DNA of 64,000 bases from a virus (Duplodnaviria > Heunggongvirae > Uroviricota > Caudoviricetes): positions 20,420 through 84,419 of IMG/VR virus record IMGVR_UViG_2974574300_000001; one strand, written 5' to 3'. Position 1 is the first letter of the stretch. Each line of letters begins with the position of its first letter. The notes beneath the pieces are model-generated. The model ran no database searches. It was given only the letters and a program-made list of their open reading frames with translations, and was not told where the DNA came from. A program made the translations under genes and the position numbers. Below, piece by piece: positions 39,244 through 57,399 of the stretch.

Positions 39244-39514
39244 AGAGAAGTGGAAGATTTTACCATTAGTCAGTGAAGGTGGTAATGGTTGTGAAATGTA
39301 CATGATACGTGGTCATGTTCCAGAACCAATTGCACTTGAGATGGTAAACAACTTTACAGATGGCTCTTACAAAGACTTAGGGGAGCCAACTATAAAGCAG
39401 CAATGGGTAAAGCCTGTACCAGACAGCACAGGTAACTGTAGTGTACTTTATCACGTTGTAGACCCTGCAAAATGCAAATCTGCAATGGCAGTAACAAACG
39501 TAACTTTTGATTGA
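39236..39514 (+). CDS. hypothetical protein
   Basis: 92 aa ORF. Confidence 0.35.
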   Translation: MAKEKWKILPLVSEGGNGCEMYMIRGHVPEPIALEMVNNFTDGSYKDLGEPTIKQQWVKPVPDSTGNCSVLYHVVDPAKCKSAMAVTNVTFD

Positions 39515-40407
39515 GAGAGAAAACTATGAAAACATCTATCCGTGTTACAGTTCATTCACCAACTAAAGGGACTCATGAAGAAGAGTTTAACATCGTCCAA
39601 TTTCCTTCTGGTGAGATTGGTGGACATTTTTCACCAGAGTTTGTTGATTTTACTGCTTATGCTGCATCATCCATCAACAACGTGATTATGATTGTAAAGG
39701 GTTATGACAAAGACACATTATTTGCTGTGGCACTTGCTAAAGAGGCAATTGATGATTTAGTACCTCATAAGTTTGCTATGAAGACTGCTATCTTTTACTA
39801 TTTGCCAAATGCACGTTACGACCGTCACATGTTTAAAGGCGATGCAGCAGCTTTGAAAGTGTTTGCACAACAGGTTAATGCAATGGGTTTTGATGCAGTC
39901 TGTGCAGTTGACCCTCATAGTTACGTTCCAGATAACCTTTTCAACTGCTTCCAGAGTATTCCTCAAAAGGAGATTGCAGTCCACTATGCAAATGACCCTC
40001 TGATTGATTACTTAGTAGCCCCAGATGCAGGTGCTTCTAAGAAGATTGCAGAGACTGCTAAAGAGGTGGATAAACCATATATCACAATGTCTAAAGTACG
40101 CAACCTTAAGACTGGTGAAATAACTGGTATGCGAATCCTTGATGATGTTGATTTGACAGATAAAACTGTCATGATTCTTGATGATATTTGTGATGGTGGT
40201 CGAACCTTCGTAGAAGCAGCGAAACATCTTCGTGAAGCAGGTGCAAAACGTGTGGAACTTTATGTAACACATGGTATCTTCTCTAAAGATGTTGAAAACC
40301 TTCTTGACAATGGTATCGACCATATTTACACTACAAACTCTTTAGGCGAAGCTAAAGACCGTGGCTTAACACATTACAGTCAAGTTACTGTAGCAAACCT
40401 TGATTAG
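39511..40407 (+). CDS. ribose-phosphate pyrophosphokinase family protein (Prs-like; candidate Adps-type)
   Basis: 298 aa; two-domain phosphoribosyltransferase-like architecture with PRPP-binding-loop-like VMILDDICDGGRT. Confidence 0.6.
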   Translation: MREKTMKTSIRVTVHSPTKGTHEEEFNIVQFPSGEIGGHFSPEFVDFTAYAASSINNVIMIVKGYDKDTLFAVALAKEAIDDLVPHKFAMKTAIFYYLPNARYDRHMFKGDAAALKVFAQQVNAMGFDAVCAVDPHSYVPDNLFNCFQSIPQKEIAVHYANDPLIDYLVAPDAGASKKIAETAKEVDKPYITMSKVRNLKTGEITGMRILDDVDLTDKTVMILDDICDGGRTFVEAAKHLREAGAKRVELYVTHGIFSKDVENLLDNGIDHIYTTNSLGEAKDRGLTHYSQVTVANLD

Positions 40408-40921: not shown

Positions 40922-42703
40922 ATGAGTAAGTCACTTTACGCAGTACCAGCAGGTCTTAATGCAGATGCTTACAAGGCATCACATATATATCAGTATCCAG
41001 ATGCTACGCAATATCTTATGTTGAACCTGACACCACGTAGTGATAAATGGTTTAACAGTCCTTTAGCAATTGACGGTGTAGTGGCTTTTGGTATTCAACG
41101 TTTTGTTAAAGATTACTTGATAGACCACTGGAACGCCACTTTCTTTGAACGTGATAAAAAAGAAGCAATTGATGAAATCTTAGAAGTCATGAATGGTGTT
41201 CTGGGTAAAGATGCTATCGGTCGAGAGCATTGGGAAGCACTTCACGACTTAGGTTATCTACCAGTTGAAGTATACGCTGTAGAAGAAGGCACAGTTGTCC
41301 CTATGCGTGTTCCAATGATTGTCTTCCAGAACACTGTTTCAGGTTTCCATTGGGTAGCAGGTTATCTGGAAGATGCTTTCTCTGCTGAGATTTGGAAGGC
41401 TTGCACCATTGCGACTATCGCATTGCACTACAAACGTATCTGTAAGAAGTGGGCTGACCTTACTTGCGACAACGACTTACATTTACCTTATCAGTGCCAT
41501 GACTTTGCTATGCGTGGTATGTCCGGCTTTACTGATGACGCATTTAATGCTGTAGGTCACTTAACCAGCTTTAAAGGGACTGATAGCTTCCCTGCTGTAT
41601 ACACAGCTAAACGTATCTATGGACAGTCTTGCCCAATCTCTGATATTGGCAGTTCTGTACCAGCCACTGAACACTCTGTGATGTGTGCAAACATTGCTTG
41701 GGAAGGTGGTAACGAGTTGGTTGAAGAAGAAAGACGATTTAAAGGTGAGTTGCAAACCTTCCGTCGTTTCTTAACAGAAACTTACCCAACTGGTATTGCA
41801 AGTATTGTTTCAGATACTTATAACTTCTGGAGAACTGTGTCAGAAATCTTACCAGCACTTCGTAAAGAAATTATGGAACGTGATGGTAAGCTGGTAATTC
41901 GCCCTGACTCTGGAGACCCTGTACATATTGTCACAGGTTATAAAGCAATCCACTTAGAGTGTGCTAAAAAGGCTTACTACGAGCACCTAAGCAAGCTAGA
42001 GGCAAGTGATACAATGCTGAACTCTGTCCTGAACATGAAGCTTGAAAACATTAGTTACGGTATTGCTGGATGGCTACTGTCAGAAGGCTACGAGATGGTT
42101 GTTGACAGAGAAGACTTTGGAGTTGCTGATACAGTGATGTTGAAAAATGCTTATATGGTTGGTTCTGCAAACGTTGTAACACGTCCTGTAGCTGAAATTG
42201 ATGGAGCTATTAAGACACTGTACAACATCTTTGGGGGAACTATTAACTCTAAAGGATTTAAGGTACTTGATGAGCACATCGGCCTTATCTATGGTGACTC
42301 TATCACGCTGGAACGTGCAAACGAAATCCTGAAGCGTCTGTATGAAATGGGTTTTGCAAGCTCTAACGTAGTGTTTGGTGTAGGCTCTTACACTTACCAG
42401 TACATGACTCGTGACACCTTTGCATTTGCTGTCAAAGCAACTCTTGCAAGCATTGGTGGTAAAGAGATTATGCTTGCAAAAGACCCTAAAACAGATAGTG
42501 GTGTTAAGAAGTCTGCCTTTGGTGGTGTAGCACCCATGTGGGATGGTGATAAGCTGAAAGCTGTAGATGGCTATGGATTCCGGAGTTTTGCAGATGTACT
42601 TGACCACCCAGCTTGTGCTTTACGTTTAGTCTTTAGCGACTCTGAGCAGTTCGGTTATACAACTCTTGGTGATATTCGAAACAATATTGACAAGCAGCTT
42701 TAA
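40922..42703 (+). CDS. nicotinamide phosphoribosyltransferase family protein (NAMPT-like; candidate Namat-type)
   Basis: 593 aa; NAMPT-like N-terminus (GLNADAYKASHIYQYP), ~100 aa longer than typical NAMPT. Confidence 0.6.
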   Translation: MSKSLYAVPAGLNADAYKASHIYQYPDATQYLMLNLTPRSDKWFNSPLAIDGVVAFGIQRFVKDYLIDHWNATFFERDKKEAIDEILEVMNGVLGKDAIGREHWEALHDLGYLPVEVYAVEEGTVVPMRVPMIVFQNTVSGFHWVAGYLEDAFSAEIWKACTIATIALHYKRICKKWADLTCDNDLHLPYQCHDFAMRGMSGFTDDAFNAVGHLTSFKGTDSFPAVYTAKRIYGQSCPISDIGSSVPATEHSVMCANIAWEGGNELVEEERRFKGELQTFRRFLTETYPTGIASIVSDTYNFWRTVSEILPALRKEIMERDGKLVIRPDSGDPVHIVTGYKAIHLECAKKAYYEHLSKLEASDTMLNSVLNMKLENISYGIAGWLLSEGYEMVVDREDFGVADTVMLKNAYMVGSANVVTRPVAEIDGAIKTLYNIFGGTINSKGFKVLDEHIGLIYGDSITLERANEILKRLYEMGFASSNVVFGVGSYTYQYMTRDTFAFAVKATLASIGGKEIMLAKDPKTDSGVKKSAFGGVAPMWDGDKLKAVDGYGFRSFADVLDHPACALRLVFSDSEQFGYTTLGDIRNNIDKQL

Positions 42704-42740: not shown

Positions 42741-42756
42741 ATTTCTGGAGAAAGAC

Positions 42757-43250: not shown

Positions 43251-43278
43251 TTTAACAGTAAACTAAGAGGAAAGTATT

Positions 43279-45645: not shown

Positions 45646-45650
45646 AGTGT

Positions 45651-45680
45651 TTGACAAGGGGCTTTGAAGCCCCTTAGAAT
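45651..45680 (+). promoter_or_regulatory. sigma70-like promoter with a hairpin in the spacer, upstream of rIIB
   Basis: ttgaca-aggggctttgaagcccc-tagaat; spacer forms ggggc/gcccc. Confidence 0.4.
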
Positions 45681-45724
45681 AGCCTCACAAAATGATTTAT
45701 TAACTAACAAGAGAGAGTAATAAG

Positions 45725-46834
45725 ATGACTACTAAAACTAAAGCACAGATTGACGCAGAAATTTACAAACTGGTTAAAGAAGGTAAGCTGACTAAAACAG
45801 CTATTGCACAGAAATTTAATACTTCAACCCGTTCAGTTGGTCGTGCTGTAGAGCGTCATGAAGCAACCTTAAAAGGGGATAAGAAGGTGACTTCTACACC
45901 AGCTACTAAGACTTTGAAACAAGTTGCTAAGACTTTTAAAAAGAAAGCTGACAAACCAGTTGAAAAGGTTGTTAAAGAGTCTGTACAGAAAGCTCCAGTA
46001 AATAAACTACATGAAGCTATGCAGAAAGATGACAAGATTGAGTACATGATTACTGGTGACTCTGTAATTATGACTTACGGTTCAGAATCTGAAATTGTTG
46101 AGTCTACTCATCCGAACTATCAAGGGATTGTAGTTCATGTTGTGAAAGGTGAGTTCAAAAAAGCCTTTGAACTGATGAACATTCGTAAGTCTATCGAAAA
46201 CTTCACTCAGGGTGCTATCACAATCAAAGGTGACAAGTTATTCTACGGTGCTGTTGAGATGCGTTCTACTCTGGTTGACCGTATTCTTCACATGATGAAG
46301 ACTGGTGATAAAGGTTTTGAACGACTTGTAATGTTCTTCGAAAAACTGATGGAAAACCCATCTAAAGATTCTGTAGAACAACTTTGGGGCTTCGTATCTC
46401 ACCTTGATGTTGAAATTGATGAAGAAGGATACATCATTGGTTGGAAGAAAGTCTCTACTCGTGAAGGCAAGCTGGTTGACTCCCACACCTACAGAGTACC
46501 TAATGATTTAGGCAACATTGTAGAAATGCCACGTTGGATGGTTGATAATAACCGTAACGTGACTTGCTCTCAAGGTCTTCACGTTGGTGCTTGGGATTAT
46601 GTTCGTTGCTTCTCAGGTGATACAATTCTGAAGGTTCGTGTTCATCCACGAGATGTTGTATCTGTTCCAACTGATTACAACGATATGAAGATGCGCTCGT
46701 CTCGTTATGAAGTTGCAGCAATCGTTGATAATCAACGTAAAGTACTGAAAGCATGGGATGGCAAGACTGAAGCTTTGCATGTCATCGTTGGTACTGCTGG
46801 AGAACTTATCTCCCAACGTAAACGTGAAATCTAA
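45725..46834 (+). CDS. rIIB: rIIB protein
   Basis: 369 aa; LFYGAVEMRSTLVDRIL, EEGYIIGWKKV and PRWMVDNNRNVTCSQGLHVGAWDYV parallel T4 rIIB. Confidence 0.85.
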   Translation: MTTKTKAQIDAEIYKLVKEGKLTKTAIAQKFNTSTRSVGRAVERHEATLKGDKKVTSTPATKTLKQVAKTFKKKADKPVEKVVKESVQKAPVNKLHEAMQKDDKIEYMITGDSVIMTYGSESEIVESTHPNYQGIVVHVVKGEFKKAFELMNIRKSIENFTQGAITIKGDKLFYGAVEMRSTLVDRILHMMKTGDKGFERLVMFFEKLMENPSKDSVEQLWGFVSHLDVEIDEEGYIIGWKKVSTREGKLVDSHTYRVPNDLGNIVEMPRWMVDNNRNVTCSQGLHVGAWDYVRCFSGDTILKVRVHPRDVVSVPTDYNDMKMRSSRYEVAAIVDNQRKVLKAWDGKTEALHVIVGTAGELISQRKREI

Positions 46835-46850
46835 TAAGTAATTTCTTAAA

Positions 46851-46875
46851 AGGCTGCTTCGGCGGCCTTTTTTAT
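46851..46875 (+). terminator. rho-independent terminator
   Basis: aggctgc-ttcg-gcggcct followed by tttttt. Confidence 0.55.
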
Positions 46876-46934
46876 TTGTATTTTGTGCAGAGTGCTGTAT
46901 AATTGTTGTCACGATAAACTAAACAGGAGAACCA

Positions 46935-47483
46935 ATGAAGAAATTGATTCTAGGTTTGTGCTTAATGTTTACAGCACACTTATCTTATGCAGTTGACTGC
47001 CCAGAGCTATCAATTAGCCAAAAAGTAAACATGTTAAAAGCTTACCAGTATGGTGAGAATAACATGGGTAAAGGTTGGGGTATTACTCTAGCAGCTATAG
47101 CCTTACAAGAGTCAGAGTTAGGTCTGAAGGTAGAGAATAAAAAGACCCATGACTATGGTATTTTCCAGAATCACTTGAAGACTGTTGTAAAGCGTAACAA
47201 AATTAGCCCTAATGTGGCTAAAAAGAAACTCTTAAGAGATTTTGATTATGCTGCGAAGGAAACGCACAAAGAGCTTGAGTTTTGGACAAAGGTACATGGT
47301 CAGCCAAAGTCAAAGAAGACTTTACAAAAAGTTTTAGCATCATATAATGCTGGGTATTCGTACAGAATCCCTAAAGCTAAGAAATATTCTCAAGATGTTT
47401 ATAACAATATGAAAGTAATTGCTCAATGTGAATTTGCAACAAACATTTCTAAGGTAAACCATGAAAAAATTAAGAAAGTCTGA
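46935..47483 (+). CDS. secreted lytic transglycosylase-like protein (SLT family)
   Basis: 182 aa; signal peptide MKKLILGLCLMFTAHLSYA; SLT-like motifs AIALQESELG, YGIFQN and ASYNAGYS. Confidence 0.55.
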   Translation: MKKLILGLCLMFTAHLSYAVDCPELSISQKVNMLKAYQYGENNMGKGWGITLAAIALQESELGLKVENKKTHDYGIFQNHLKTVVKRNKISPNVAKKKLLRDFDYAAKETHKELEFWTKVHGQPKSKKTLQKVLASYNAGYSYRIPKAKKYSQDVYNNMKVIAQCEFATNISKVNHEKIKKV

Positions 47484-48156
47484 TGAAGTATTGTGCCATG
47501 CTTATGACTTACAGCCTCATGAGTTAGGACTTGATTCCTGTGTATGGACTCCAGAACAGTGCAGGGATTTTGAAGACACCGCAAGAGAAGTTGTATGTTC
47601 ACTTGAAGAGTTCCACATATCAGAACCAATTGTGAACGTTGTGGACAAAGAGACTGGGCAATCCATAGGTGTAAAACGTGATAGCTTAGTCATAGTCAAC
47701 AAAGACCTTGTAGAGAAAGGTAATCTTATCTTAGCAGATATTGATGGAGTTCTTACAAATTTTAATCACGAAGATTGTTCAACGGAATTGACTGATGGTT
47801 CATTTTCACAGTACACTAATCTTCTTGATTCTGTAAGAGCAAAACCAACGTATGTTTTCAATATCATTGATGCAATTGCTAATCATGCTGCCGTTGGACT
47901 CTTGACAGCGAGAGGTGAATCTCAGAGAATACCCACTGAGATGTTTTTAAGGCATAACACGGAGCATGACTACATGCTTTTTATGCGTGGTTTTGGGACT
48001 AACTCTATAAGTGCAGAAAGTTTGAAAGTGAGGATGATTCAGTCTTGCATTCTGCCTTACTTTAATATAGTATGTTTTATAGAAGACACAGAGAAGAATG
48101 TGCAGAAGGTGAACAGAATCCTTCCACACATCAAAACCATGTTAGTTAAACATTGA
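47461..48156 (+). CDS. hypothetical protein, possible HAD-like hydrolase
   Basis: 231 aa; LILADIDGVLT resembles HAD motif I but is not N-terminal; weak. Confidence 0.3.
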   Translation: MKKLRKSDEVLCHAYDLQPHELGLDSCVWTPEQCRDFEDTAREVVCSLEEFHISEPIVNVVDKETGQSIGVKRDSLVIVNKDLVEKGNLILADIDGVLTNFNHEDCSTELTDGSFSQYTNLLDSVRAKPTYVFNIIDAIANHAAVGLLTARGESQRIPTEMFLRHNTEHDYMLFMRGFGTNSISAESLKVRMIQSCILPYFNIVCFIEDTEKNVQKVNRILPHIKTMLVKH

Positions 48157-48166
48157 GAGAAAACTT

Positions 48167-48631
48167 ATGAACAATATCATTACGGTAGCACTGGACGTTA
48201 CGGCAAACAAATCTGAAGTAGTTCGTAACATTATCAAGAGCAACTTTGAGGGTAAAATCTTCCGTGCTGTCAATGTAAAAGCAGACGGTAACATTCGGGA
48301 GTATCGTGCCCTTTTGAATGTTAAGAAACACGTCAAAGGTGCTGGTTCAACGACTGCACACAAAGAAAACCTGATGACCATCTATGATATTGGGATGGCT
48401 TCAGAATTAGGTGCTGAAGGTATCGTTAAAGAAGGTGCTCCGTATCGCTCTTTCAATCTGGAAACTGCTCTCATGCTTTCCTTTACAAGTGGTTCTAAAA
48501 CAACTACTTATCTCTTTACTGATGCTGCAACGGTATCTGCTATCAAGGATAGCACTGTCAAAGCTGGGGTAGCTGCTGCTGCAAAAGCTTCTTCGATGGC
48601 TGCAAATGTCCTTGCTAAAGTCCTCGGTTAA
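48167..48631 (+). CDS. hypothetical protein
   Basis: 154 aa ORF with Ala-rich C-terminus. Confidence 0.35.
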   Translation: MNNIITVALDVTANKSEVVRNIIKSNFEGKIFRAVNVKADGNIREYRALLNVKKHVKGAGSTTAHKENLMTIYDIGMASELGAEGIVKEGAPYRSFNLETALMLSFTSGSKTTTYLFTDAATVSAIKDSTVKAGVAAAAKASSMAANVLAKVLG

Positions 48632-48642
48632 GGTTAAGATAC

Positions 48643-48666
48643 AGGCTCCTTCGGGAGCCTTTTTCA
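48643..48666 (+). terminator. rho-independent terminator
   Basis: ggctcc-ttcg-ggagcc followed by tttttc. Confidence 0.6.
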
Positions 48667-48683
48667 TTTCAGGAGATTGTTAA

Positions 48684-49031
48684 ATGACATTTAAAGAGTT
48701 CTGTCAAGCCACTTTCATAATTGTTTTCTTAGTTGGGGCAGGTGTCTGGGGAGGATACTCTTACAGAGACTGTCAAGTTGCTGAAACTGAGCTAAACAAT
48801 CAAAAGCTCATAAGTGTTGCTAAAGATGCTTATCAGGAAGGATTAGTCACACTGAGCACCAATTACAAAAATGATTTGAAAGATGTGCTTGCTAAGAATA
48901 AGCATACAAAAGAGGTACTAACATATGAAAAAACTAAGCCAGAGTTTTATAATGTTTGTGTTACTGATAACTATGTCAGGGTGTTCAACGAACAAAGTGA
49001 ACAGTACATTCAAAAACTCCCAAGTAAGTGA
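48684..49031 (+). CDS. putative i-spanin (inner-membrane spanin subunit)
   Basis: 115 aa; N-terminal TM (ATFIIVFLVGAGVWGGY) and charged periplasmic domain; 3' end overlaps a lipoprotein ORF in another frame. Confidence 0.45.
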   Translation: MTFKEFCQATFIIVFLVGAGVWGGYSYRDCQVAETELNNQKLISVAKDAYQEGLVTLSTNYKNDLKDVLAKNKHTKEVLTYEKTKPEFYNVCVTDNYVRVFNEQSEQYIQKLPSK

Positions 49032-49194
49032 GAGCGATAAGTACACTCAAGAAGAGTCACAGTATATCATCAAAGGCAACACAGGCAGTGATGTAGCAGC
49101 AGCCCTTGAGTTCTATCGTGACGGCTTTTACCAGTGTACAATCAAAGCTAATAACCTTATTGACATGATTTTATTAGGGAATAAGCAGCAATGA
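48925..49194 (+). CDS. putative o-spanin (outer-membrane lipoprotein spanin subunit)
   Basis: 89 aa; signal peptide with lipobox ITMSGC, one further Cys; start embedded in the 3' end of 48684..49031. Confidence 0.45.
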   Translation: MKKLSQSFIMFVLLITMSGCSTNKVNSTFKNSQVSESDKYTQEESQYIIKGNTGSDVAAALEFYRDGFYQCTIKANNLIDMILLGNKQQ

Positions 49195-49460
49195 CAGAGA
49201 ATCAAGATACTTTCTATGTAGAAGGTTACTTACTGTTACCACGACCAAAAGAAACTTATATGCGAATTGATTTCTCACCAACCATCATGGATAATGTGAT
49301 GTGCCATATCTTTATGCAAGGTGTCACAGCACAACTTAAGCATGTTGGCAAAGAGTGCAAAATAAAGGTTGACACTCATCCAGAAATCAAAGAAAATCAC
49401 TACACATGGTTCTTACCAGACTCTAAAGAAATCTTAGCAGTTCTTAAAACGAGGAAGTAA
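49191..49460 (+). CDS. hypothetical protein
   Basis: 89 aa ORF. Confidence 0.35.
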   Translation: MTENQDTFYVEGYLLLPRPKETYMRIDFSPTIMDNVMCHIFMQGVTAQLKHVGKECKIKVDTHPEIKENHYTWFLPDSKEILAVLKTRK

Positions 49461-49462
49461 CT

Positions 49463-49786
49463 ATGCAGATTAATGGAAGAGACTTTGTAGCCGTTTACTA
49501 CGAGAAAGGTAAAGAGGTTGGTGTAGCACAAGTAACTTATGGCAATGGTAAGTGGCTATATGGAACAATCGCAGTAGTAGGAACAAGAAGTGATACAAAA
49601 ACTTTTAAAGATTGTGTTGACCTTCTTGAAGAATCCATCCAGAATCATTGGTGTCTGATATGGATGACTGATAACGAAGTGATGGAGCGTTTCAAAAAGA
49701 TTGATATCAACATTGACAGTATTGAGCATGTTGATTTATATGAGCTAACTGAGAAGGTAAACTATGAAAGCTCTAGAGGTAATTGA
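49463..49786 (+). CDS. hypothetical protein
   Basis: 107 aa ORF. Confidence 0.35.
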   Translation: MQINGRDFVAVYYEKGKEVGVAQVTYGNGKWLYGTIAVVGTRSDTKTFKDCVDLLEESIQNHWCLIWMTDNEVMERFKKIDINIDSIEHVDLYELTEKVNYESSRGN

Positions 49787-49991
49787 TAAAGACACTGGAG
49801 AAGTTACATCAGCATGTGTTTTCGTTAGTAACGACACAGTGATACCATTTTACAATCTCGATAGTTTTAGTTTTACAGGGATAACTCCAGAAGAATACTT
49901 TGAAGACCTTACCTTTGCCAGAATTTCTATAGATACATTCTATAAATGCTTCTATGATGAAGGTAAAGAATTACGAGAAACTGAACTATAA
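49764..49991 (+). CDS. hypothetical protein
   Basis: 75 aa ORF. Confidence 0.3.
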   Translation: MKALEVIDKDTGEVTSACVFVSNDTVIPFYNLDSFSFTGITPEEYFEDLTFARISIDTFYKCFYDEGKELRETEL

Positions 49992-50003
49992 GGTGTAAAT
50001 TAC

Positions 50004-50204
50004 ATGGCTGACTTCTGCAAAGATTGTTCTATCGAGATGTTTGGACGTGATACAGGTGACTTAAAAGGTCTTATCACTGAAGATGACTTTAAAGCTGGTT
50101 ATGCAATGCCAGTAATATGTGAAGGTTGTGGGTGCATCTGGGTAGACCACGAAGGGCAACGTGTAAAACCTTCAGAAGATAAAGAATCTTGGGAGAGATG
50201 TTAA
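50004..50204 (+). CDS. small zinc-ribbon protein
   Basis: 66 aa with CKDC ... CEGCGC cysteine clusters. Confidence 0.35.
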   Translation: MADFCKDCSIEMFGRDTGDLKGLITEDDFKAGYAMPVICEGCGCIWVDHEGQRVKPSEDKESWERC

Positions 50205-50984
50205 ATGGGTATTGTAAAAGTTGTGAAAGGTAACTTACTGGCTGCCTTCAAAAACACAGATATTGAGTTAATTGCTCATGGTTGCAACTGTCGTAACCTC
50301 ATGGGTGCTGGAATCGCTCAAAAAATTGCTAAGATTTTCCCAAAAGCTGAAGAAGCTGACCGGAAATTCCATAAAAAGTTTGGCTACAGTGCTCATGATA
50401 TCGGATACCAGATGGTCGGTGAGGTGTCACATGCTCGAACGGAGTATGGTTACATTTTTAACCTATATACACAGTTGGATGTTGGGAAGTGTGCATCATA
50501 CCGATACTTAGTGGAGTCACTAGAAAAACTCCGTAAATTTTGCTGGCTGCACAACATTCGTAAGATTGGTTTACCCATGATTGGGGCAGGTATAGGTGGT
50601 TTAGATGCACAAGCTGTGAAAAGCCTCATTAATAGTGTTATGTATAACGTTGATGTGTACCTCTACGTCTATGATGAAACAATGGCAAGTGTAGTTACCC
50701 CTAAGTATGCTACCTCAGCACCACAATTCTATGATGGTGTCGTGCTAAGTGACGGGAAGACTAATCAAGTTACCCTCTATCAACTTGTTGAAGGTAAGGT
50801 CGAGGTTAGTTACCCTCTGGTTAGTGAGATGGGTATGTGCAACAGTGAAATGTTCCCAGTTGACCCGTTTGGAAGATATGAAGGTGTATTCTTTGATAAC
50901 TACCCAGCAGCGTACATCTACACAACAAATCAGGATGAAGTTCACTACTTGCTGTATTCTAAAAAGTTCAAATTCATAAGCTGA
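50205..50984 (+). CDS. macro-domain-like protein (ADP-ribose binding/processing)
   Basis: 259 aa; ELIAHGCNCRNLMGAGIAQKIAKIFP resembles the macro-domain glycine-rich loop of the OARD1/TARG1-like subgroup, as recalled. Confidence 0.45.
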   Translation: MGIVKVVKGNLLAAFKNTDIELIAHGCNCRNLMGAGIAQKIAKIFPKAEEADRKFHKKFGYSAHDIGYQMVGEVSHARTEYGYIFNLYTQLDVGKCASYRYLVESLEKLRKFCWLHNIRKIGLPMIGAGIGGLDAQAVKSLINSVMYNVDVYLYVYDETMASVVTPKYATSAPQFYDGVVLSDGKTNQVTLYQLVEGKVEVSYPLVSEMGMCNSEMFPVDPFGRYEGVFFDNYPAAYIYTTNQDEVHYLLYSKKFKFIS

Positions 50985-51130
50985 TTAGTACTTCACAGTA
51001 TCTGTAAGGTATTTAAGAAGGTCACCTAACCCATTGAAAAATTTAAGGTAAGGTGGCCTTTTTCATTTTCAATTCGTGCAGGTATCTGTATAGGTCTGTA
51101 CAGATATCTCCAAAAATCTCATCGCCGGAT

Positions 51131-51201
51131 AGAAAAATCATTTTCAAAACGTGCAGACCCCGCTCAGGTCGGGCAAGAAAAATCATTTTAGAATTGTGCA
51201 G
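51131..51201 (+). repeat. two ~25 bp direct repeats with a third partial copy at 51061-51081
   Basis: agaaaaatcattttcaaaacgtgcag and agaaaaatcattttagaattgtgcag. Confidence 0.5.
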
Positions 51202-51220
51202 GTAGGTTTTTATAGAGAGC

Positions 51221-51259
51221 CAGCCCAGCCCCTCTCCCCCTCTTACTCCCCCTCTCCCC
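51221..51259. repeat. C/T-only tract, G-rich on the minus strand
   Basis: cagcccagcccctctccccctcttactccccctctcccc; at least five C-runs of 3 or more in 39 nt. Confidence 0.5.
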
Positions 51260-51380
51260 AAAAGTCAAGAGAAAAATTTGTAGCGGATTGAAAAATAATT
51301 CTTGATTTGCGTTCTGTTTTGTGGTAGTCGTGTGCGCCCGTTCATTTCCCAACCTTACAAAAAATATTTAATAAAAACCG

Positions 51381-51409
51381 TTGACACGCCAAACAAGTTT
51401 ACGTACTAT
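51381..51409 (+). promoter_or_regulatory. sigma70-like promoter for the small-ORF cluster
   Basis: ttgaca-N17-tactat, then ggag RBS and ATG at 51459. Confidence 0.5.
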
Positions 51410-51458
51410 TTGCATCAGACGGGCAAGCAAGCCCACTTCCTAAACTGGAGAATCGAAA

Positions 51459-51665
51459 ATGCTTTACAGTCGTGAATTGATGGCTACAACTAACGTTAAC
51501 ACAAATGCAAAACGTTTTTACATGCAAATTTGTGGCGTATGGTCTAGAATATCAGAAGCTGACTATTGCAACTATGTAGAAACAGCTATAAACTCTAATT
51601 GCTACCTTACAAGAAATACTAAGAAGTTTACAAGGCAAACAGCGATTTACTATTACGATAAATAA
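51459..51665 (+). CDS. small early-type protein
   Basis: 68 aa; ATG with ctggag RBS. Confidence 0.4.
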   Translation: MLYSRELMATTNVNTNAKRFYMQICGVWSRISEADYCNYVETAINSNCYLTRNTKKFTRQTAIYYYDK

Positions 51666-51753
51666 AAAGTACTTTACATGGGGCTTAAAAGTCTGTAAAG
51701 TAAGCCCCAGATAAAGAGCTTTACCACTCAATCCTAAATTGGAGAACTTAAAA
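51666..51753 (+). promoter_or_regulatory. cassette A copy 1 (stem-loop plus conserved leader)
   Basis: ctttacatggggcttaaaagtctgtaaagtaagccccagataaagagctttaccactcaatcctaaattggag then ATG. Confidence 0.5.
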
Positions 51754-52134
51754 ATGGCATACCGCGCACCGAAATTCATCAATAAAGAAAATTTTCGTAA
51801 TGTATTAGAGAAGGCGCTTGATGAAAAATTTAACGGCAAAATAATTGTTGTTCACTCGTTCAATTTCAAGTATGATATCAACGGGAATAAAATCAACCAT
51901 TACACGGCAACCATGTTAGATGGCACTCTTTCAAGTGAAAAAACAATTCTCCATGCACTTGCTGGACGTGGAAAAAACCTGATAAGATGCGATAAGAGAC
52001 GTTATCAAGGTGGCGCATATGGTTATGATGATGCTATTTATCATCTTGAAAATATGGGCTATCAAGTAGAAAAAGCTGGAGTATCACAAATCATCGGGAG
52101 TGATGGTTATGTAACAACTTTCAAAATTAGATAA
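51754..52134 (+). CDS. small early-type protein
   Basis: 126 aa from ATG after the cassette (track start 51739 is an alternative start inside the cassette). Confidence 0.4.
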   Translation: MAYRAPKFINKENFRNVLEKALDEKFNGKIIVVHSFNFKYDINGNKINHYTATMLDGTLSSEKTILHALAGRGKNLIRCDKRRYQGGAYGYDDAIYHLENMGYQVEKAGVSQIIGSDGYVTTFKIR

Positions 52135-52223
52135 TAAAGTACTTTACAGGGGGCTTATAGTTCAATAAAGTAAGCCCCAGATAAAGAGCTTTACCACTAA
52201 ATCCTAAATTGGAGATTCAAAAA
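52135..52223 (+). promoter_or_regulatory. cassette A copy 2
   Basis: ctttacagggggcttatagttcaataaagtaagccccagataaagagctttaccactaaatcctaaattggag. Confidence 0.5.
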
Positions 52224-52514
52224 ATGGCTATTATCAAAAACGTTGTAATTCCTGCAAAAACTCGTGATGACGCTCGCATCATGGCGAAAAAGTTAGGCGG
52301 GAAAGTGGTTGACAATGGGAAACAATCTGCTGTAAGGTGGGGCGTGAAGGTTGATAAACAGTTGAAGTTAAAAAATTCACCAATAAACCTTTTTACATGT
52401 GTAAACACTATCGGGAAGACAAATGTATACACGAAAAAGGCATATATTAGACGCGTAGCCTTAACATCTCCCATTCGTACAATGAGAAGCTATGCAAAGC
52501 TAAAAATTAACTGA
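52224..52514 (+). CDS. small early-type protein
   Basis: 96 aa from ATG at 52224 (track 52209 trimmed). Confidence 0.4.
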   Translation: MAIIKNVVIPAKTRDDARIMAKKLGGKVVDNGKQSAVRWGVKVDKQLKLKNSPINLFTCVNTIGKTNVYTKKAYIRRVALTSPIRTMRSYAKLKIN

Positions 52515-52601
52515 TAAAGTACTTTACAGGGGGCTTAAAAGTTGATATCTTAAGCCCCAGATAAAGAGCTTTACCACTAAATCCTAAATTGGAGATTCAA
52601 A
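52515..52601 (+). promoter_or_regulatory. cassette A copy 3
   Basis: ctttacagggggcttaaaagttgatatcttaagccccagataaagagctttaccactaaatcctaaattggag. Confidence 0.5.
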
Positions 52602-53114
52602 ATGAAAAATGTAGACGCTACCTTTGAAGTTGTAAAAGAAAAATTTTCCATCATCTACGAAGCGGTAAATTGCTATGAAGCAAGCCATAATCTTGATAAT
52701 TGGAAGTTTACAGATGACCATCAAGGCGGCGTGACTGTTAAAAATCCTAACTGTCAGTATAATGAATTTAAATATGCAATCCCTTTGCATTACAGCCTTA
52801 AACAGCTTTCAAGTGACTATGCAAAACAAGGCCGGGAAAATCCATCAAAAGATGCTTACATTAGCTTACAGAAAGAATTAGAAAGAGATTTAGAGGCTTC
52901 AGAATACGACCTTGCCGCGAAAGTTGTCGATGCAAATGGCAACACGGTTTTAGAGAGTTTTTATCTAGGATATGCCTTTGACTGGTGCTATAGTGACGGT
53001 GATGATTTAGAGGAAAGACTAAAAGAAGAGGTGAGCAATTCAGACGCAGAAACTGAAGTATTAGAACGTTTGGAATCATTAAAAGACTCAGTGATGAATA
53101 TCTTTAAGAACTAA
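52602..53114 (+). CDS. small early-type protein, acidic
   Basis: 170 aa ORF directly after cassette A copy 3. Confidence 0.4.
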   Translation: MKNVDATFEVVKEKFSIIYEAVNCYEASHNLDNWKFTDDHQGGVTVKNPNCQYNEFKYAIPLHYSLKQLSSDYAKQGRENPSKDAYISLQKELERDLEASEYDLAAKVVDANGNTVLESFYLGYAFDWCYSDGDDLEERLKEEVSNSDAETEVLERLESLKDSVMNIFKN

Positions 53115-53200
53115 AGAGATTTCTTTACACGGGGTTATCAAGCTGATAAGATAGCCCCAGATAAAGAGATTTATCAACTGTCCTAAACTGGAGATTCAAA
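53115..53200 (+). promoter_or_regulatory. cassette A copy 4 (diverged)
   Basis: ctttacacggggttatcaagctgataagatagccccagataaagagatttatcaactgtcctaaactggag. Confidence 0.45.
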
Positions 53201-53497
53201 ATGAAATTATCAAATAAAGTTCGTGAAAATCTAAGCAAGTTACTAAACAAAATTGATTTCATTGAAACATCAAGGAATAATCATGATGTTATGGAATGGT
53301 TACATGGAAAAATAAAAGGCCGTCGTGTAGTGATTTGCTTATGGAATAGTTGCAGGGAGTATAAAAAACCTGTATTGCAAGTCAATATTTATGATGACAC
53401 TTTTAAAAGTCCAGTAAAGTCTAAAAGCGATTTATTAGAATCCTATGAGATAACTGTAAATGGCAAAGTATCACGTAAAGAGGAAACACCATGTTAA
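53201..53497 (+). CDS. small early-type protein
   Basis: 98 aa ORF after cassette A copy 4. Confidence 0.4.
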   Translation: MKLSNKVRENLSKLLNKIDFIETSRNNHDVMEWLHGKIKGRRVVICLWNSCREYKKPVLQVNIYDDTFKSPVKSKSDLLESYEITVNGKVSRKEETPC

Positions 53498-53823
53498 TGA
53501 CTGGTATCACTGCAATCATTGCCATTTTCGCGCTATATAAGGCATATAAAGCCTATAATCTAGCAAATAAGGCAATCACGCAACAGGTTAGCAATAGCCT
53601 TGTAGAGAGCTTTCTAGAGCGCCTCAGTGATGAGCAAATAAAGCGGCTAGAGATGAGCTTCAGATATAAAGCGAAAACCTATCAGATAAGTGACATCTTC
53701 AAAGATGATTTTCAGTTAGTCGATGATTATAATTCACTGATAAATGCTTTAAATATCAGTGACTTAAAAGACTACTACGCTGTAATTGTTCAAGAATTGA
53801 GCAAACGAAAACAAAGTGTTTGA
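53491..53823 (+). CDS. small early-type protein
   Basis: 110 aa; start overlaps upstream stop; hydrophobic N-terminus. Confidence 0.4.
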   Translation: MLMTGITAIIAIFALYKAYKAYNLANKAITQQVSNSLVESFLERLSDEQIKRLEMSFRYKAKTYQISDIFKDDFQLVDDYNSLINALNISDLKDYYAVIVQELSKRKQSV

Positions 53824-53913
53824 CACTGGTTTTTAGATAGATTAAATTACACATCAACGGGGAGGGAATGACCTTCCCCACTAAATAAAGTCCTTAAACT
53901 AGGAGAGTCTAAA
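53820..53913 (+). promoter_or_regulatory. cassette B copy 1: sigma70-like promoter, leader stem-loop, RBS
   Basis: ttgaca-ctggtttttagatagat-taaatt, then ggggagggaatgaccttcccc hairpin and aggag before ATG 53914. Confidence 0.55.
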
Positions 53914-54186
53914 ATGTATACTACTAACAATGGTCGTACTTTAAATGTAACTTTACGTCACTATGTAGACGGTGTAATGCACTTTGAGGATTTACGGGCT
54001 GAACAACATATCTTAGATTGGCAAGTAGCAGGACTCCAAAAAACTGCTACGGGATACGGTAAAAAGATTCCAACCAGTTGGAAAGTACACTACGAAGGAC
54101 GTTTGCGCAGAATTTATCAAGATGTATGTAGTAATAGTGCATCAAGTTACATCATAGTAAAAGGTAAAAAGCTGCATTTAGTATAA
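53914..54186 (+). CDS. small early-type protein
   Basis: 90 aa ORF after cassette B. Confidence 0.4.
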   Translation: MYTTNNGRTLNVTLRHYVDGVMHFEDLRAEQHILDWQVAGLQKTATGYGKKIPTSWKVHYEGRLRRIYQDVCSNSASSYIIVKGKKLHLV

Positions 54187-54271
54187 AGTACTTTACAAGG
54201 GGCTTAAAAGTCTGTAAAGTAAGCCCCAGATAAAGAGCTTTACCACTAAATCCTAAATTGGAGATTCTAAA
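54187..54271 (+). promoter_or_regulatory. cassette A copy 5
   Basis: ctttacaaggggcttaaaagtctgtaaagtaagccccagataaagagctttaccactaaatcctaaattggag. Confidence 0.5.
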
Positions 54272-54676
54272 ATGGCTATTAACAACCGTGAATTAGCAAT
54301 CTTAAAAGCACGTTTGACCGTTAACCGGATTAATGTTATTACGTCATCAGCACCGGATGAAACATTGCATAACATTATTGGGAAGATTCAAAGTGTTATC
54401 TTAGACGTTGAAAATGTAAAAAGCTCATTGGCTGACGTTGCAGCAGGTATCACGCTAGACGGCGCACAATATGAAATGTCCGACATGTTAGGCAAATCAA
54501 AGGTAATGAATAAAGAATTAGACTTGAAAATGTTTCGATTTGCTGTCAAAGTGTGGCTATCTGTCGAGTATGACGCTAATTTTGCAATCGCTGATTTCTT
54601 TGCCACTTGGTTACAACGTAATTTGACAAATCACGATTTTCGTGATGTCTGTGATGCAATTTATGCAGAACTCTAA
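54272..54676 (+). CDS. small early-type protein
   Basis: 134 aa ORF after cassette A copy 5. Confidence 0.4.
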   Translation: MAINNRELAILKARLTVNRINVITSSAPDETLHNIIGKIQSVILDVENVKSSLADVAAGITLDGAQYEMSDMLGKSKVMNKELDLKMFRFAVKVWLSVEYDANFAIADFFATWLQRNLTNHDFRDVCDAIYAEL

Positions 54677-54684
54677 AAATTTTG

Positions 54685-54779
54685 TTGACACTGGTTTTTA
54701 TATAGATTAAATTACTAATCAACGGGGAGGGAATGACCTTCCCTACTAAATAAAGTCCTTAAACTAGGAGATTCTAAAA
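54685..54779 (+). promoter_or_regulatory. cassette B copy 2: promoter, leader stem-loop, RBS
   Basis: ttgaca-ctggtttttatatagat-taaatt, then ggggagggaatgaccttccc hairpin and aggag. Confidence 0.55.
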
Positions 54780-55127
54780 ATGGCTTATGTAACCGTAATT
54801 ACTGATAAAGCTGGCGCATCTTGGTCAACTCAGGTTAGTGATAAGATGTCACCTATGCAGTGTCTAAAATACTTTGAGCAATGGAATAAAGGCGAAGATG
54901 TAAGCCCCTTTCAAGTGATGCAGGTTATCCATGTAGATAACGAAGGGAATAAAACGACCTTAAATAGTGAGTACTACGCAAGCCGTTTTGAAACGAGAAG
55001 TAAAGCAATGAAGCTCTTACGTGAGGCCGGATATGGTCACATTGCCGCGATAATCTGGGATGACCTTCTAAAAAGTCAACGTATCAGCTATGTAAAACCT
55101 GAAAAATATTCATCAGTTAATCAATAA
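54780..55127 (+). CDS. small early-type protein
   Basis: 115 aa ORF after cassette B copy 2. Confidence 0.4.
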   Translation: MAYVTVITDKAGASWSTQVSDKMSPMQCLKYFEQWNKGEDVSPFQVMQVIHVDNEGNKTTLNSEYYASRFETRSKAMKLLREAGYGHIAAIIWDDLLKSQRISYVKPEKYSSVNQ

Positions 55128-55152
55128 CTTACAAAAAACTTTTAAAAAATTG

Positions 55153-55343
55153 TTGACAATACCCCTTGACATTGGTAACTTTGTTCGAGGGGGTTTATCT
55201 AAAAGGGATTCACTTAAAAGATTCTTTATAGATAAGCTTAAAAAATTGCTTGCAATCAGCTATCAAAAATCTGTAAATTACTAATCAACGGGGAGGCGAT
55301 AACCTCCCCACTAAATAAAACCCTTAAACTAGGAGATTCTAAA
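55153..55343 (+). promoter_or_regulatory. cassette B copy 3 (extended): tandem ttgaca boxes, then B-type -10/stem-loop/RBS
   Basis: ttgacaataccccttgacattgg; later ttgcaa-N18-taaatt, ggggaggcgataacctcccc hairpin, aggag before ATG 55344. Confidence 0.45.
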
Positions 55344-55592
55344 ATGGCTACTATCCGCGCAACTGTTAACGAATTTGGCTTCTACTCTCTGGATGTTAAA
55401 TTTGACATTGCAGGCACTGATAACGCCTTTGAAATGGTGAAAGGCCTTATCAGTCAGACCATCAAAGATTATAATCCTTCGGATGAGTTCTGGGAGGAAA
55501 CAAAACAAGAAGTTCTCAAGGATGGCTATACTTATCACTATTGGGGAGAAAAAATCGTCTCCCTGTACTACAATAAACAAGATTATAACTAA
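55344..55592 (+). CDS. small early-type protein
   Basis: 82 aa ORF, last of the cassette-framed array. Confidence 0.4.
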   Translation: MATIRATVNEFGFYSLDVKFDIAGTDNAFEMVKGLISQTIKDYNPSDEFWEETKQEVLKDGYTYHYWGEKIVSLYYNKQDYN

Positions 55593-55612
55593 ATAGCCCC
55601 AGATACCTTTAC

Positions 55613-55637
55613 AGCCCCTTCATAGGGGCTTTTTTAC
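55613..55637 (+). terminator. rho-independent terminator ending the small-ORF array
   Basis: agcccct-tcat-aggggct followed by tttttt. Confidence 0.6.
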
Positions 55638-55978
55638 GTCTATCGAATCTTTATACAATCCCTTTTCCTCGCCTTTCTAGAATCTTACTAGACCTTAAAA
55701 AGCAATAACTCTATAGCCTACTCTATAGCCTTTTATCAAATCAACTTAAATATAAGCCATAACCCGAAAGGGAAGGGCAACCACTAAAACGCTCTATAAC
55801 GCTCTATAACAGCCTTATCAACCTAACTTAAGCAATCATATTAACCCACCCTAAAAAGCCCTTTATAAAGCTTCTTAGAGCCTTAAAAGAATCTTATAAG
55901 GGTGTAAGCTTTATTATCTCGTTAGTTATCTTGTGAACTACTAAAAAGGGCTTGGTAGCTCCTTTAAAGTATGTTATA

Positions 55979-56133
55979 GGGGCTATGAAGTTACTTCAAA
56001 GTAACGTAAAAGGGGCTTAAAAGTTACTTCAAAGTAACGTAAAAGGGGCTATGAAGTTACTTCAAAGTAACGTAAAAGGGGCTTAAAAGTTACTTCAAAG
56101 TAACGTAAAAGAGGTTATAAAGTTACGTAAATG
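55979..56133. repeat. tandem array of a 33 bp unit (4 full copies plus a partial), each with a short palindrome
   Basis: ggggct(atgaa/taaaa)gttacttcaaagtaacgtaaaa repeated; internal inverted repeat gttac-ttcaaa-gtaac. Confidence 0.7.
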
Positions 56134-56141
56134 CTAGCCCC

Positions 56142-56193
56142 CTTAACATTTTCTTAACATTTTCTTAACATTTTCTTAACATTTTCTTAACAA
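56142..56193. repeat. 11 bp tandem repeat, about 4.7 copies
   Basis: cttaacatttt repeated head-to-tail. Confidence 0.7.
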
Positions 56194-56222
56194 ATCCTAC
56201 ATAGTTATGCTTTTAAGCAACT

Positions 56223-56752
56223 TGTTAGCCCCTTGTTAAATCTCTGTTAAGACCACGTAAAAGCCTTGTAAGAGTCTTTGACATAGCCTTAAAAGCCCCT
56301 GTAAAGCCCTATAAAGAGCTATCCGTACAGTTGAGGGGTAAATACTAGGAAGAGACTTAAAAGAGCCTATAAAGAGCTATAGAGGGCTTTTAAGAGGTAT
56401 GTTTAAGGAATCACTAAGAAAGGAAAGGGAACGATAAGAAAGAAGAGTTGTGTTTGTAAACAACCACTGTGACCATGTTAATAGCTTGTTAAAAAGATTA
56501 AACACTTGTTAGGAACTTGTTAATTATCTTAACAAAATAACTCTTTAAAATTAACTAATTAACTCTTGTTAGTCATCTGTTAAGCCTCTGTAAAGACTAT
56601 GTATCAACTGTTAAGAAACTGTTACACCCTTGTTAGTTCTGTTAAGAATCTGTTAAGACCTTTGAAGAGTTGTTAAGAAGATGTGAGAACTGTTAAGAGA
56701 TTGTTAAGGATATTTTAAAATTCTGCAAAGGGGGTGTTAAGGGGCTGTTAAG
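56223..56752. repeat. cluster of TGTTAAG / TGTTAG heptamers (iteron-like), many phased about 11 bp apart
   Basis: at least 17 copies; spacings of 11, 11, 9, 11 and 20, 20, 11 nt between successive copies in 56609-56752. Confidence 0.6.
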
Positions 56753-57125
56753 GGCTACCAAGCAGATATACATCCTCTACAGATATTTTTCAGTTCCTTC
56801 AAAGACCCTAAAAAATGACTTGATAGTCCTATTTTATAAAAATTTTAAAATTCTGAATAATTACCTATACAGTCTTTCTAAAATACAGGTGATAACAGGC
56901 TTATAAGATACCTTGTTAGTACCGTGTTAGACCTTGTGAGATAAGGTCTGTAAAGATATTCCTGTTAAGTTTGTTAAAACAGTCTATATAGAGGCTTAGT
57001 AATACCGAGTGAACACCTATAGAGGGTCACATAGCTAACCTAATGGGTTACTGTTAAGTAACACAGATAACCCAGAGATTAAGAGGTGTATAGGAGCTTC
57101 TAAGAGGGTATAGAGAGGTGGTTAA

Positions 57126-57167
57126 GGTGATTGTATAGGTTGTTAAGGTGATTGTATAGGTTGTTAA
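57126..57167. repeat. perfect 21 bp direct tandem repeat
   Basis: ggtgattgtataggttgttaa x2, flanked by more gttaag motifs. Confidence 0.7.
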
Positions 57168-57363
57168 GATGGCTTGTTAGAGGGCTAGTTAGAAGGGTTA
57201 TACAGAGGGCTATTAAGACCACTAGATAGTTACTAAGATACTATATAGTACTATATAACTATATAGAGAGTAAGATTAAGAAGGTTGTTAAGAAGGATAG
57301 ATATTTTGTTCACATATGATGGTGACCCAGAGGTTGGGACAACCGATAAAATTTTATAAAAAT

Positions 57364-57392
57364 TAAAAAGCCCCCAATTAAGGAGGCTCTTA
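57364..57392 (-). terminator. rho-independent terminator for the minus-strand cluster
   Basis: minus strand reads agcctcc-ttaatt-gggggct followed by ttttaattttt. Confidence 0.5.
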
Positions 57393-57399
57393 AGATATT

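Follow-up and report, generated by a model that had tools for sequence, protein, structure and literature searches.

A two-domain macro protein of a Felix-O1-like phage: a candidate ADP-ribose-processing counter-defence factor

The macro gene and its transcription unit

The macro protein gene described here lies in a 64,000-nucleotide stretch of DNA (the window) taken from the IMG/VR virus record IMGVR_UViG_2974574300_000001 (positions 20,420 to 84,419 of that record), the source phage being a Felix-O1-like myovirus (Ounavirinae, Felixounavirus). The gene occupies 50205..50984 on the + strand, stop codon included, starts with ATG and encodes a 259 amino acid (aa) protein that is covered over its full length by PHROG 335 (E = 2e-85). 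A first-pass annotation, made from the sequence alone, had singled out this open reading frame (ORF) as macro-domain-like on the basis of its N-terminal segment, ELIAHGCNCRNLMGAGIAQKIAKIFP (residues 21-46), and the ORF listing and translation agree with it in position, strand, length and quoted segment. The product consists of a macro domain (residues 1-157; 50205..50675, + strand), delimited by its Pfam match, fold matches and a 33-sequence family alignment, an inter-domain linker of lower model confidence (residues 158-172; 50676..50720, + strand) and a C-terminal domain that is modelled as six beta-strands and a terminal helix (residues 173-259; 50721..50981, + strand).

The ATG of the macro gene directly follows the TAA (50202-50204) of the upstream ORF, and a Shine-Dalgarno sequence, GGGAGAG, can be read 7 nucleotides (nt) 5' of it (50191..50197, + strand). 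That upstream ORF (50004-50204, + strand; phrog_2210) encodes a conserved 66 aa protein with a zinc-ribbon-like CxxC...CxxC pattern, its stop codon adjoining the macro-gene start. Directly 3' of the macro gene is an intrinsic-terminator-like hairpin with a U-tract (51015-51063, within a terminator-like element annotated as 51015..51072, + strand) that has a predicted RNA folding energy of -28.6 kcal/mol (z = -5.0), a stability equalled by none of 200 shuffled sequences, and the next promoter-like site, TTGACA-17-TACTAT (51381-51409), is found beyond this hairpin. In all likelihood, then, the macro gene is the final cistron in a long + strand unit closed by this hairpin, whose other genes include rIIA, rIIB, a transglycosylase-like gene, a kinase-like gene and the spanins. 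Around it, besides the spanins and the rII genes, are short phage ORFs without a known function (PHROGs 2210, 13034 and 5293); no darT or other ADP-ribosyltransferase gene was noticed beside it, the genome not having been scanned systematically for such genes.

Matches to the macro region exist in 245 phage records, the best of them at 93-95% nucleotide identity. GenBank labels in these relatives include 'Macro domain, Poa1p-like, high-affinity ADP-ribose binding module', 'phosphatase' and 'O-acetyl-ADP-ribose deacetylase', and an annotation dating from the 2000s describes ORF29 of phage FelixO1 as a homologue of Tk.4, a protein encoded in the tk-vs intergenic region of phage T4.

A macro domain of the TARG1/DarG/Poa1p class

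The motifs H25-G-C-N28, M33-G-A-G-I-A38, N86-L-Y-T-Q90 and P124-x-I-G-A-G-I-G-G132 are invariant or near-invariant in the 33-sequence alignment, and the glycine-rich loops that they include (G34-A-G36 and G127-A-G-I-G-G132) are conserved in the family. Pfam model PF01661 scores 28.9 bits (gathering cutoff 22; E = 1.2e-6), with residues 25-140 of the protein corresponding to profile positions 2-116 of 118. When the single sequence is compared with the sequences of solved structures in the PDB, the best matches are TARG1/OARD1 (5e-8) and Thermus aquaticus (Taq) DarG (6e-7), followed by Poa1p and M. tuberculosis DarG; a profile built from the 33 sequences finds TARG1 at E = 6e-17 and DarG at 1e-15. 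An AlphaFold2 model computed from the same alignment has a mean predicted local distance difference test score (pLDDT) of 92 and a predicted template modelling score (pTM) of 0.88. Foldseek places this model closest to TARG1 (E = 2.8e-10; template modelling (TM) score 0.84-0.87), with DarG structures at TM 0.79-0.84 (0.81 for Taq DarG) and Poa1p at 0.78.

A total of 241 PDB entries match the model with E <= 1e-3, and the best 50 of these 241 are all macro domains or macro-derived designed hydrolases. The top 15 Foldseek matches and the top eight profile matches are TARG1, DarG and Poa1p, with alphavirus macro domains scoring about 100-fold worse. A genuine three-layer alpha/beta macro fold, with a macro domain of the ADP-ribose-binding type, is thus confirmed, and its nearest neighbours are the TARG1/DarG/Poa1p (ALC1-like) class rather than the MacroD, PARG or viral nsP3 types. 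The macro-domain resemblance seen in the first-pass annotation is borne out by the structure prediction against macro families that it had proposed as a check, and its assignment to an OARD1/TARG1-like subgroup was correct, since the best PDB matches by both sequence and fold are TARG1, DarG and Poa1p.

Active-site equivalences were read from an alignment of the macro protein with FelixO1 ORF29, T4 Tk.4, PhiKZ gp104 (AdfM), two DarG macro domains, TARG1 and BT1257, to which gp174 of Vibrio phage Chloris was added later. In the BLASTP alignment to PhiKZ gp104 the catalytic motif is out of register by one residue, and this comparison was made with MAFFT and HMMER alignments, which agree in pairing T89/Q90 with T/K. 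The asparagine at N28 is conserved and corresponds to DarG N22 and PhiKZ N23, whilst G131 occupies the position of TARG1 Asp125, which is also a glycine in DarG. Q90 occupies the position of the catalytic lysine of TARG1 (K84), DarG (K80) and PhiKZ AdfM (K78), and the class-typical catalytic lysine after beta-strand 5 is accordingly not present in the macro protein. This glutamine is invariant in 33 out of 33 family members and is found also in T4 Tk.4, in Chloris gp174 and in the uncharacterised Bacteroides protein BT1257. It thus sets the phage Tk.4-type macro domains apart as a Gln-type clade within the TARG1/DarG/Poa1p class.

Relationship to characterised homologues

In pairwise comparisons, the closest characterised homologue is T4 Tk.4 (33% identity over 159 residues, E = 9e-23, 78.6 bits). 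Chloris gp174, the syntenic ortholog of the phage macro protein Adpp, whose gene is flanked by Prs-like and NAMPT-like genes, is 28.7% identical (E = 3e-15, 55.8 bits), followed by TARG1 (54.3 bits) and Taq DarG (52.8 bits), with PhiKZ AdfM far lower at 26.2 bits. The motifs NLYTQ and IGAGIG(G) are found in both the macro protein and T4 Tk.4, whereas Chloris gp174 has NVYGQ, a seven-residue insertion and IGCGLAGG; the corresponding motifs in DarG and PhiKZ gp104 are FPTK and LG.(G/A)NGG. The only PADLOC and NCBIfam models matched are those for DarG (PDLC02990 and the equivalog NF048014), at 58 and 57 bits, and it is the macro half of the models that is covered. T4 Tk.4 scores 36 and 30 bits against these models and PhiKZ AdfM 133-138; at 57-58 bits against an equivalog cutoff of 250, the macro protein does not give a full-length DarG match that would take in the DarT-binding C-terminal domain.

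The homologues have only lately been tied to particular jobs: AdfM against DarTG2, and Adpp against RES-domain NAD+ (nicotinamide adenine dinucleotide) phosphorylase (aRES) defence by way of the NARP1 pathway. Transposon sequencing of T4 identified tk.4 as the single gene needed on DarTG2 hosts; its knockout sensitised the phage and the gene was named adfM, for anti-DarT factor Macrodomain (bioRxiv 10.1101/2025.11.20.689424), a result that supports the possible role against DarTG-type defences raised in the first-pass annotation. PhiKZ gp104, which represents the chimalliviruses and is of the Lys (DarG-like) type, was independently named AdfM, and its anti-DarT2 activity has been demonstrated biochemically (Cell Rep 2026, PMC13309987). 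Vibrio phage Gary encodes Adpp, a Poa1p-like macro protein whose gene stands between the NARP1 genes Adps and Namat; it is required against aRES and dephosphorylates ADP-ribose (ADPR)-1''-phosphate, the product of the aRES phosphorylase, removal of the phosphate allowing NARP1 to rebuild NAD+ (bioRxiv 10.64898/2026.01.28.702374). More broadly, some 41% of myoviruses encode macro domains, for which counter-defence roles have been predicted (survey PMC9503650), and we find Tk.4-like macro proteins in about 2,750 phage records.

Set beside these proteins, the macro protein shares with T4 Tk.4 the HGCNC, MG(A/S)G(I/V)A, NLYTQ and IGAGIG motifs, the glutamine at the DarG-Lys position and a location in an early-gene region, but Tk.4 consists of one 155 aa domain, to which the macro protein adds about 100 aa of linker and beta-rich domain. 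PhiKZ gp104 and the DarG2 macro domains (PDB 5M31, 5M3E, 5M3I) have the same fold (TM 0.79-0.84), the conserved asparagine and a glycine-rich loop that, like that of the macro protein, is without the aspartate of TARG1, and their job, removal of ADP-ribose from DarT2-modified thymidine, is the one proposed below for the macro protein. They are, however, only 23-29% identical to it, their lysine (K78/K80) is a glutamine here and the DarT-binding domain of DarG is unmatched. Adpp is likewise a phage macro protein of the Poa1p/TARG1 class, its Chloris ortholog shares the glutamine and both genomes encode the NARP1 proteins Adps and Namat; it differs in being a single domain (158 aa in Chloris) encoded between those two genes, whereas the macro gene is 7.5 kb away from them, elsewhere in the transcription unit, and encodes two domains. 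Human TARG1/OARD1 (PDB 4J5Q/R/S) and yeast Poa1p (PDB 6LFQ), the best matches among solved structures, have in common with the macro protein the histidine of the H-x-x-N motif, but Lys84/Asp125 of TARG1 are replaced by Gln90/Gly131 and Ser30 of Poa1p by Leu32, and neither has the C-terminal domain.

A fused C-terminal domain

The extension of about 100 aa remarked upon in the first-pass annotation is a real and confidently folded domain in the models. It folds both in the full-length model and alone, with most pLDDT blocks at 85-96; the linker is less certain, with a pLDDT of 75 for residues 161-170 of the full-length model and values below 50 for residues 1-13 of the C-terminal construct. The sole strongly conserved feature is P173-x-x-x-D-G178 at the start of the domain.

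The C-terminal domain has no match in Pfam, and a search of BFVD returned the same family only (the macro protein of phage SUSP2). An exhaustive HMMER search with a 16-sequence C-terminal profile was run against 1.84 billion representative proteins, and convincing matches in a single stretch were confined to macro-fused proteins of 228-279 aa; weak multi-repeat matches to beta-propellers in this search are regarded as noise. A word-indexed homologue search with the C-terminal domain alone found one near-identical fragment only. As modelled, therefore, the domain is an orphan fold. The macro plus C-terminal architecture occurs in about 250 phage records, all of them Ounavirinae-like myoviruses of about 85-92 kb with hosts in Escherichia, Salmonella, Shigella, Citrobacter, Pectobacterium, Hafnia and Erwinia, whereas the AdfM proteins characterised so far, like the syntenic ortholog of Adpp, have one domain only and are 155-162 aa long. 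Across lineages the isoelectric point (pI) of the C-terminal domain ranges from 4.5 to 9.5, that is, its net charge is not conserved. This range led us to reject, as general explanations, both a basic DNA-binding domain and a DarG-like acidic mimic of single-stranded DNA, the latter also because the C-terminal half of the DarG models is unmatched.

Local replacement of the allele

Comparison with FelixO1 reveals that the macro gene sits in a sharply bounded region of divergence. By blastn, positions 46483-49467 are 99.1% identical to FelixO1 and 49451-50347 are 81.5% identical; nothing then matches as far as 51138, beyond which identity returns to 96-97%. The interval without detectable homology (50347..51138, + strand) has the appearance of an allelic replacement cassette, running from about codon 48 of the macro gene, just past the conserved HGCNC...MGAGIA segment, to 154 nt past its stop codon. 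Identity of the DNA on either side is 99.1% (upstream) and 97.2% (downstream), and the neighbouring ORFs have 97.8-100% protein identity, whilst the macro protein itself is only 40.8% identical to its FelixO1 counterpart (macro domain 52%, C-terminal domain 22%).

This allele, carried for instance by phages VpaE1_ev035, phiWec172 and pSJ21, is found at >= 95% identity in only 11 phage records, and roughly equal distances (41-53% identity) separate its macro domain from all other lineages of the family. In every pair compared, the C-terminal domain is far more diverged than the macro domain. The macro gene thus has the hallmarks of an exchanged, fast-evolving accessory locus, which is compatible with an arms-race role without proving it.

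The adjoining 66 aa CxxC ORF (phrog_2210) is 98.5% identical to that of FelixO1 and so does not vary together with the macro allele. Another gene with local divergence lies nearby, a 75 aa ORF (phrog_13034; 49764-49991, + strand) that is 32% identical to FelixO1 over 37 aa and has neighbours at 98-99%. Mosaicism is strong throughout 39511-55000: the macro region is best matched by phages pSJ21 and ECML-1 (about 95%), whilst the flanks of the macro gene are 99% identical to FelixO1.

NARP1 in the same genome

The first-pass annotation had also pointed to a Prs/NAMPT pair about 7.5 kb upstream on the same strand and to a possible combined NAD/ADP-ribose theme. The pair is there: a Prs-like gene (39511..40407, + strand; Pfam Pribosyltran and Pribosyl_synth) is the ortholog of NARP1 Adps (ADP-ribose pyrophosphate synthetase) and a NAMPT-like gene (40922..42703, + strand; Pfam NAPRTase and NAMPT_N) that of NARP1 Namat (nicotinamide ADP-ribose transferase). 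On these Pfam domains, NARP1 is encoded in the same genome as the macro gene; 256 Felixounavirus records share the block. It was deletion of this operon in phage Bas63 that led to the discovery of NARP1, made up of Adps and Namat (bioRxiv 10.1101/2024.02.11.579819). Bas63 is itself a Felixounavirus, and the pair is therefore a known and characterised counter-defence system. The combined theme is supported by the finding that a phage macro protein, Adpp, feeds NARP1 (bioRxiv 10.64898/2026.01.28.702374), and it is mechanistically plausible because both of the candidate activities of the macro protein would release free ADP-ribose, the substrate of Adps. The macro gene is, nevertheless, neither inside the Adps-Namat operon nor within two genes of it but lies about 15 genes downstream.

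The sole gene between the Adps-like and Namat-like genes is an ORF for a homing endonuclease with HNH_3 and AP2 domains (40416-40907, + strand). It is present in most Felixounavirus records, but records with only 84% query cover, in two pieces (phages mio and L27, for example), list no HNH gene there, which suggests a mobile insertion that splits the anti-defence operon. The NARP1 block as a whole is 99.8% identical to that of Salmonella virus VSe11.

Proposed function and its alternatives

From its fold and clade signature we infer that the macro protein is very probably a catalytically active counter-defence enzyme that processes ADP-ribose-1''-X compounds. As to the substrate, the reading that we prefer, with a probability of roughly 0.45, is that DarT2-modified DNA would be the main substrate and the role of the protein that of an AdfM. 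The gene would be expressed early and its product, belonging to the T4 Tk.4/AdfM clade, would counter a host defence. The ADP-ribose moiety would be bound between the G34-A-G36 and G127-A-G-I-G-G132 loops, which form the cleft; H25, N28 and Q90 would surround the distal ribose, and the substituent on ribose C1'' would be hydrolysed. The most likely substrate would be the ADP-ribosyl-thymidine that host DarT2 places on phage single-stranded DNA; acting as an orphan DarG-like antitoxin, the protein would restore replication, and the freed ADP-ribose could enter the phage's own NARP1 pathway as a substrate. The C-terminal domain, taking no part in catalysis, may be an Ounavirinae-like-specific accessory module that contacts a host defence protein or a substrate-delivery factor, its extreme divergence suggesting contact with a variable partner.

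By analogy, an anti-DarT2 role is the best-supported reading in view of the DarTG2 sensitivity of the T4 tk.4 knockout. The DarG-model scores, which exceed those of T4 Tk.4, together with the conserved N28 and the DarG-like loop would also favour it, as would the closeness to T4 Tk.4 in score and motifs and the location in the early rIIA/rIIB block, last before a terminator. The localised allele swap (41% aa identity as against 98-100% in the flanks) fits an arms-race locus.

Several observations weigh against this reading. The lysine that is essential in DarG, TARG1 and PhiKZ AdfM is replaced by the invariant Gln90, so that DarG-type chemistry cannot simply be carried over. The evidence for T4 Tk.4, which also has the glutamine, is genetic, DNA de-ADP-ribosylation having been deduced from it (bioRxiv 10.1101/2025.11.20.689424). 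Moreover, T4 Tk.4 resembles the Chloris Adpp ortholog (34%, 73.6 bits) about as much as it does the macro protein, and clade membership alone therefore leaves the choice between ADP-ribosylated DNA and ADPR-1''-phosphate undecided. The role proposed for the C-terminal domain has to accommodate a net charge that is not conserved and a lack of homology to the DarT-binding domain of DarG. The presence of NARP1 in the same phage fits an Adpp-like function. A look through the aRES and HIDEN-SEQ papers for data on Felix-like phages yielded nothing.

An Adpp-like function is a serious alternative, though less probable than an AdfM-type one. The protein would then be a phosphatase acting on ADPR-1''-phosphate, the product of aRES, with Adps and Namat rebuilding NAD+ and the whole forming a dispersed NARP1-AP pathway. 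The phage is a member of the genus that yielded NARP1, E. coli, Klebsiella and Enterobacter have aRES systems, the Chloris ortholog of Adpp is homologous to the macro protein and also has glutamine at the DarG-Lys position, and the best fold matches include Poa1p. The label of PHROG 335 is 'phosphatase', although this is an inherited annotation. Against this, both motifs and scores put the macro protein nearer to T4 Tk.4 than to the Adpp ortholog, the macro gene is placed some 15 genes outside the NARP1 operon, and the hypervariable extra domain has no obvious use in a small-molecule phosphatase. T4, which is not known to encode NARP1, has a member of the Tk.4 clade. Tk.4-like macro proteins, in some 2,750 phage records, have also to be set against NARP1 in about 4% of phages, and the Adpp study counted only macro genes no more than two genes away from NARP1 (bioRxiv 10.64898/2026.01.28.702374).

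It is rather unlikely that the protein hydrolyses some other ADP-ribose conjugate or signal, such as RNA or protein ADP-ribosylated by further host ADP-ribosyltransferase defences (CmdTAC-type mRNA modification, for example), the phage's own ADP-ribosylation, or 1''-linked immune signals derived from ADPR (Thoeris gcADPR or His-ADPR, for instance). Macro domains of the TARG1/DarG/Poa1p class do act on many 1''-linked substrates, the Gln-for-Lys site is unlike the DNA-specific DarG type, defence by CmdTAC-type ADP-ribosylation of mRNA exists, and the survey cited above made the case that soluble ADPR derivatives are the main targets of macro domains in phages (PMC9503650). The closest characterised homologues, however, do the jobs of AdfM or Adpp; degradation of Thoeris signals by a phage macro domain was not reported in the literature searched, and, within the limits of the unsystematic inspection mentioned above, no ADP-ribosyltransferase was noticed near the gene. 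Least probable of all is a non-catalytic binder of ADP-ribose or ADPR ligands (a sponge or sensor) in which the C-terminal domain is the real effector or interaction part: the changes of the TARG1/DarG lysine to glutamine and of TARG1 Asp125 to glycine, the 'high-affinity ADP-ribose binding module' label of one GenBank relative and the existence of non-enzymatic macro domains (macroH2A, the ThsA macro sensor) are outweighed by the presence of the same glutamine in the syntenic ortholog of active Adpp and in the functional T4 AdfM, by its invariance, which suggests a functional role rather than decay, and by the conservation of H25 and N28, the equivalents of which (Poa1p H23 and DarG N22) are mutagenised or named active-site residues.

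A more speculative reading, which we think improbable, is that the protein is a bipartite factor resembling full-length DarG in logic, not in ancestry, with a conserved macro eraser joined to a hypervariable C-terminal targeting domain. That this domain would bind and neutralise a variable host protein such as DarT2 or aRES, or recruit the enzyme to it, is likewise conjectural. Were the bipartite reading true, allele swapping would retarget the phage to other host toxin variants. A related possibility is a bifunctional enzyme, active on both ADP-ribosylated DNA and ADPR-1''-phosphate, that couples damage reversal to the rebuilding of NAD+ by NARP1.

The counter-defence idea is itself already known: both functions were published for homologues in 2025-2026, and relatives in GenBank are already annotated as macro proteins. 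What is, to date, unreported is the fused C-terminal domain of orphan fold and the cassette-like hyper-divergence of the macro gene. As the macro protein stands between the AdfM and Adpp functions, and does so in the genus that yielded NARP1, it is well suited to finding out what determines substrate choice among Gln-type macro proteins (the Tk.4/Adpp clade). If the C-terminal domain were a specificity or inhibitor module, it would represent a new design principle for phage anti-toxin proteins and would help to predict the host range of Felix-O1-like phages (used in Salmonella typing, biocontrol and therapy); if it is not, what remains is a well-supported but ordinary annotation.

The region downstream of the macro gene

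The macro gene is followed by a non-coding stretch of about 470 nt (50985-51458) that holds the terminator-like hairpin. Within it, too, are three copies of a AAAAATCATTTT-N-GTGCAG-like motif at about 51060-51205, and a C-rich CCCCTCTCCCCCTCTTACTCCCCCTCTCCCC tract lies at about 51229-51260. The 750-nt long-ORF-free stretch downstream of the macro gene contains neither a tRNA nor a match to an Rfam family, and ARAGORN found no tRNA in the whole window. Further along, a stretch of about 2.3 kb (55128-57399) has no ORF of >= 90 aa on either strand and marks a switch from + to - strand genes.

Two ORFs downstream of the macro gene (51739-52134 and 52209-52514, + strand), encoding 131 and 101 aa proteins of unknown function (PHROGs 4495 and 5089), are not present at the FelixO1 locus and have repeated intergenic cassettes on both sides. 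Directly downstream of the macro gene as they are, they have the look of accessory 'moron' insertions. The cassettes are about 100 nt long (51653-51752, 52123-52222, 52503-52602, 53131-53176 and 54172-54271), each preceding a small ORF, and a second cassette family is found at 53820-53914 and 54685-54779. They are built from a promoter-like TTTACA-17-TAAAGT sequence overlapping a GGGGCTTA...TAAGCCCC hairpin, followed by a GGAG Shine-Dalgarno sequence and an ATG, an arrangement that resembles the promoter-early-stem-loop modules of T4 and could mediate the shuffling of small accessory genes.

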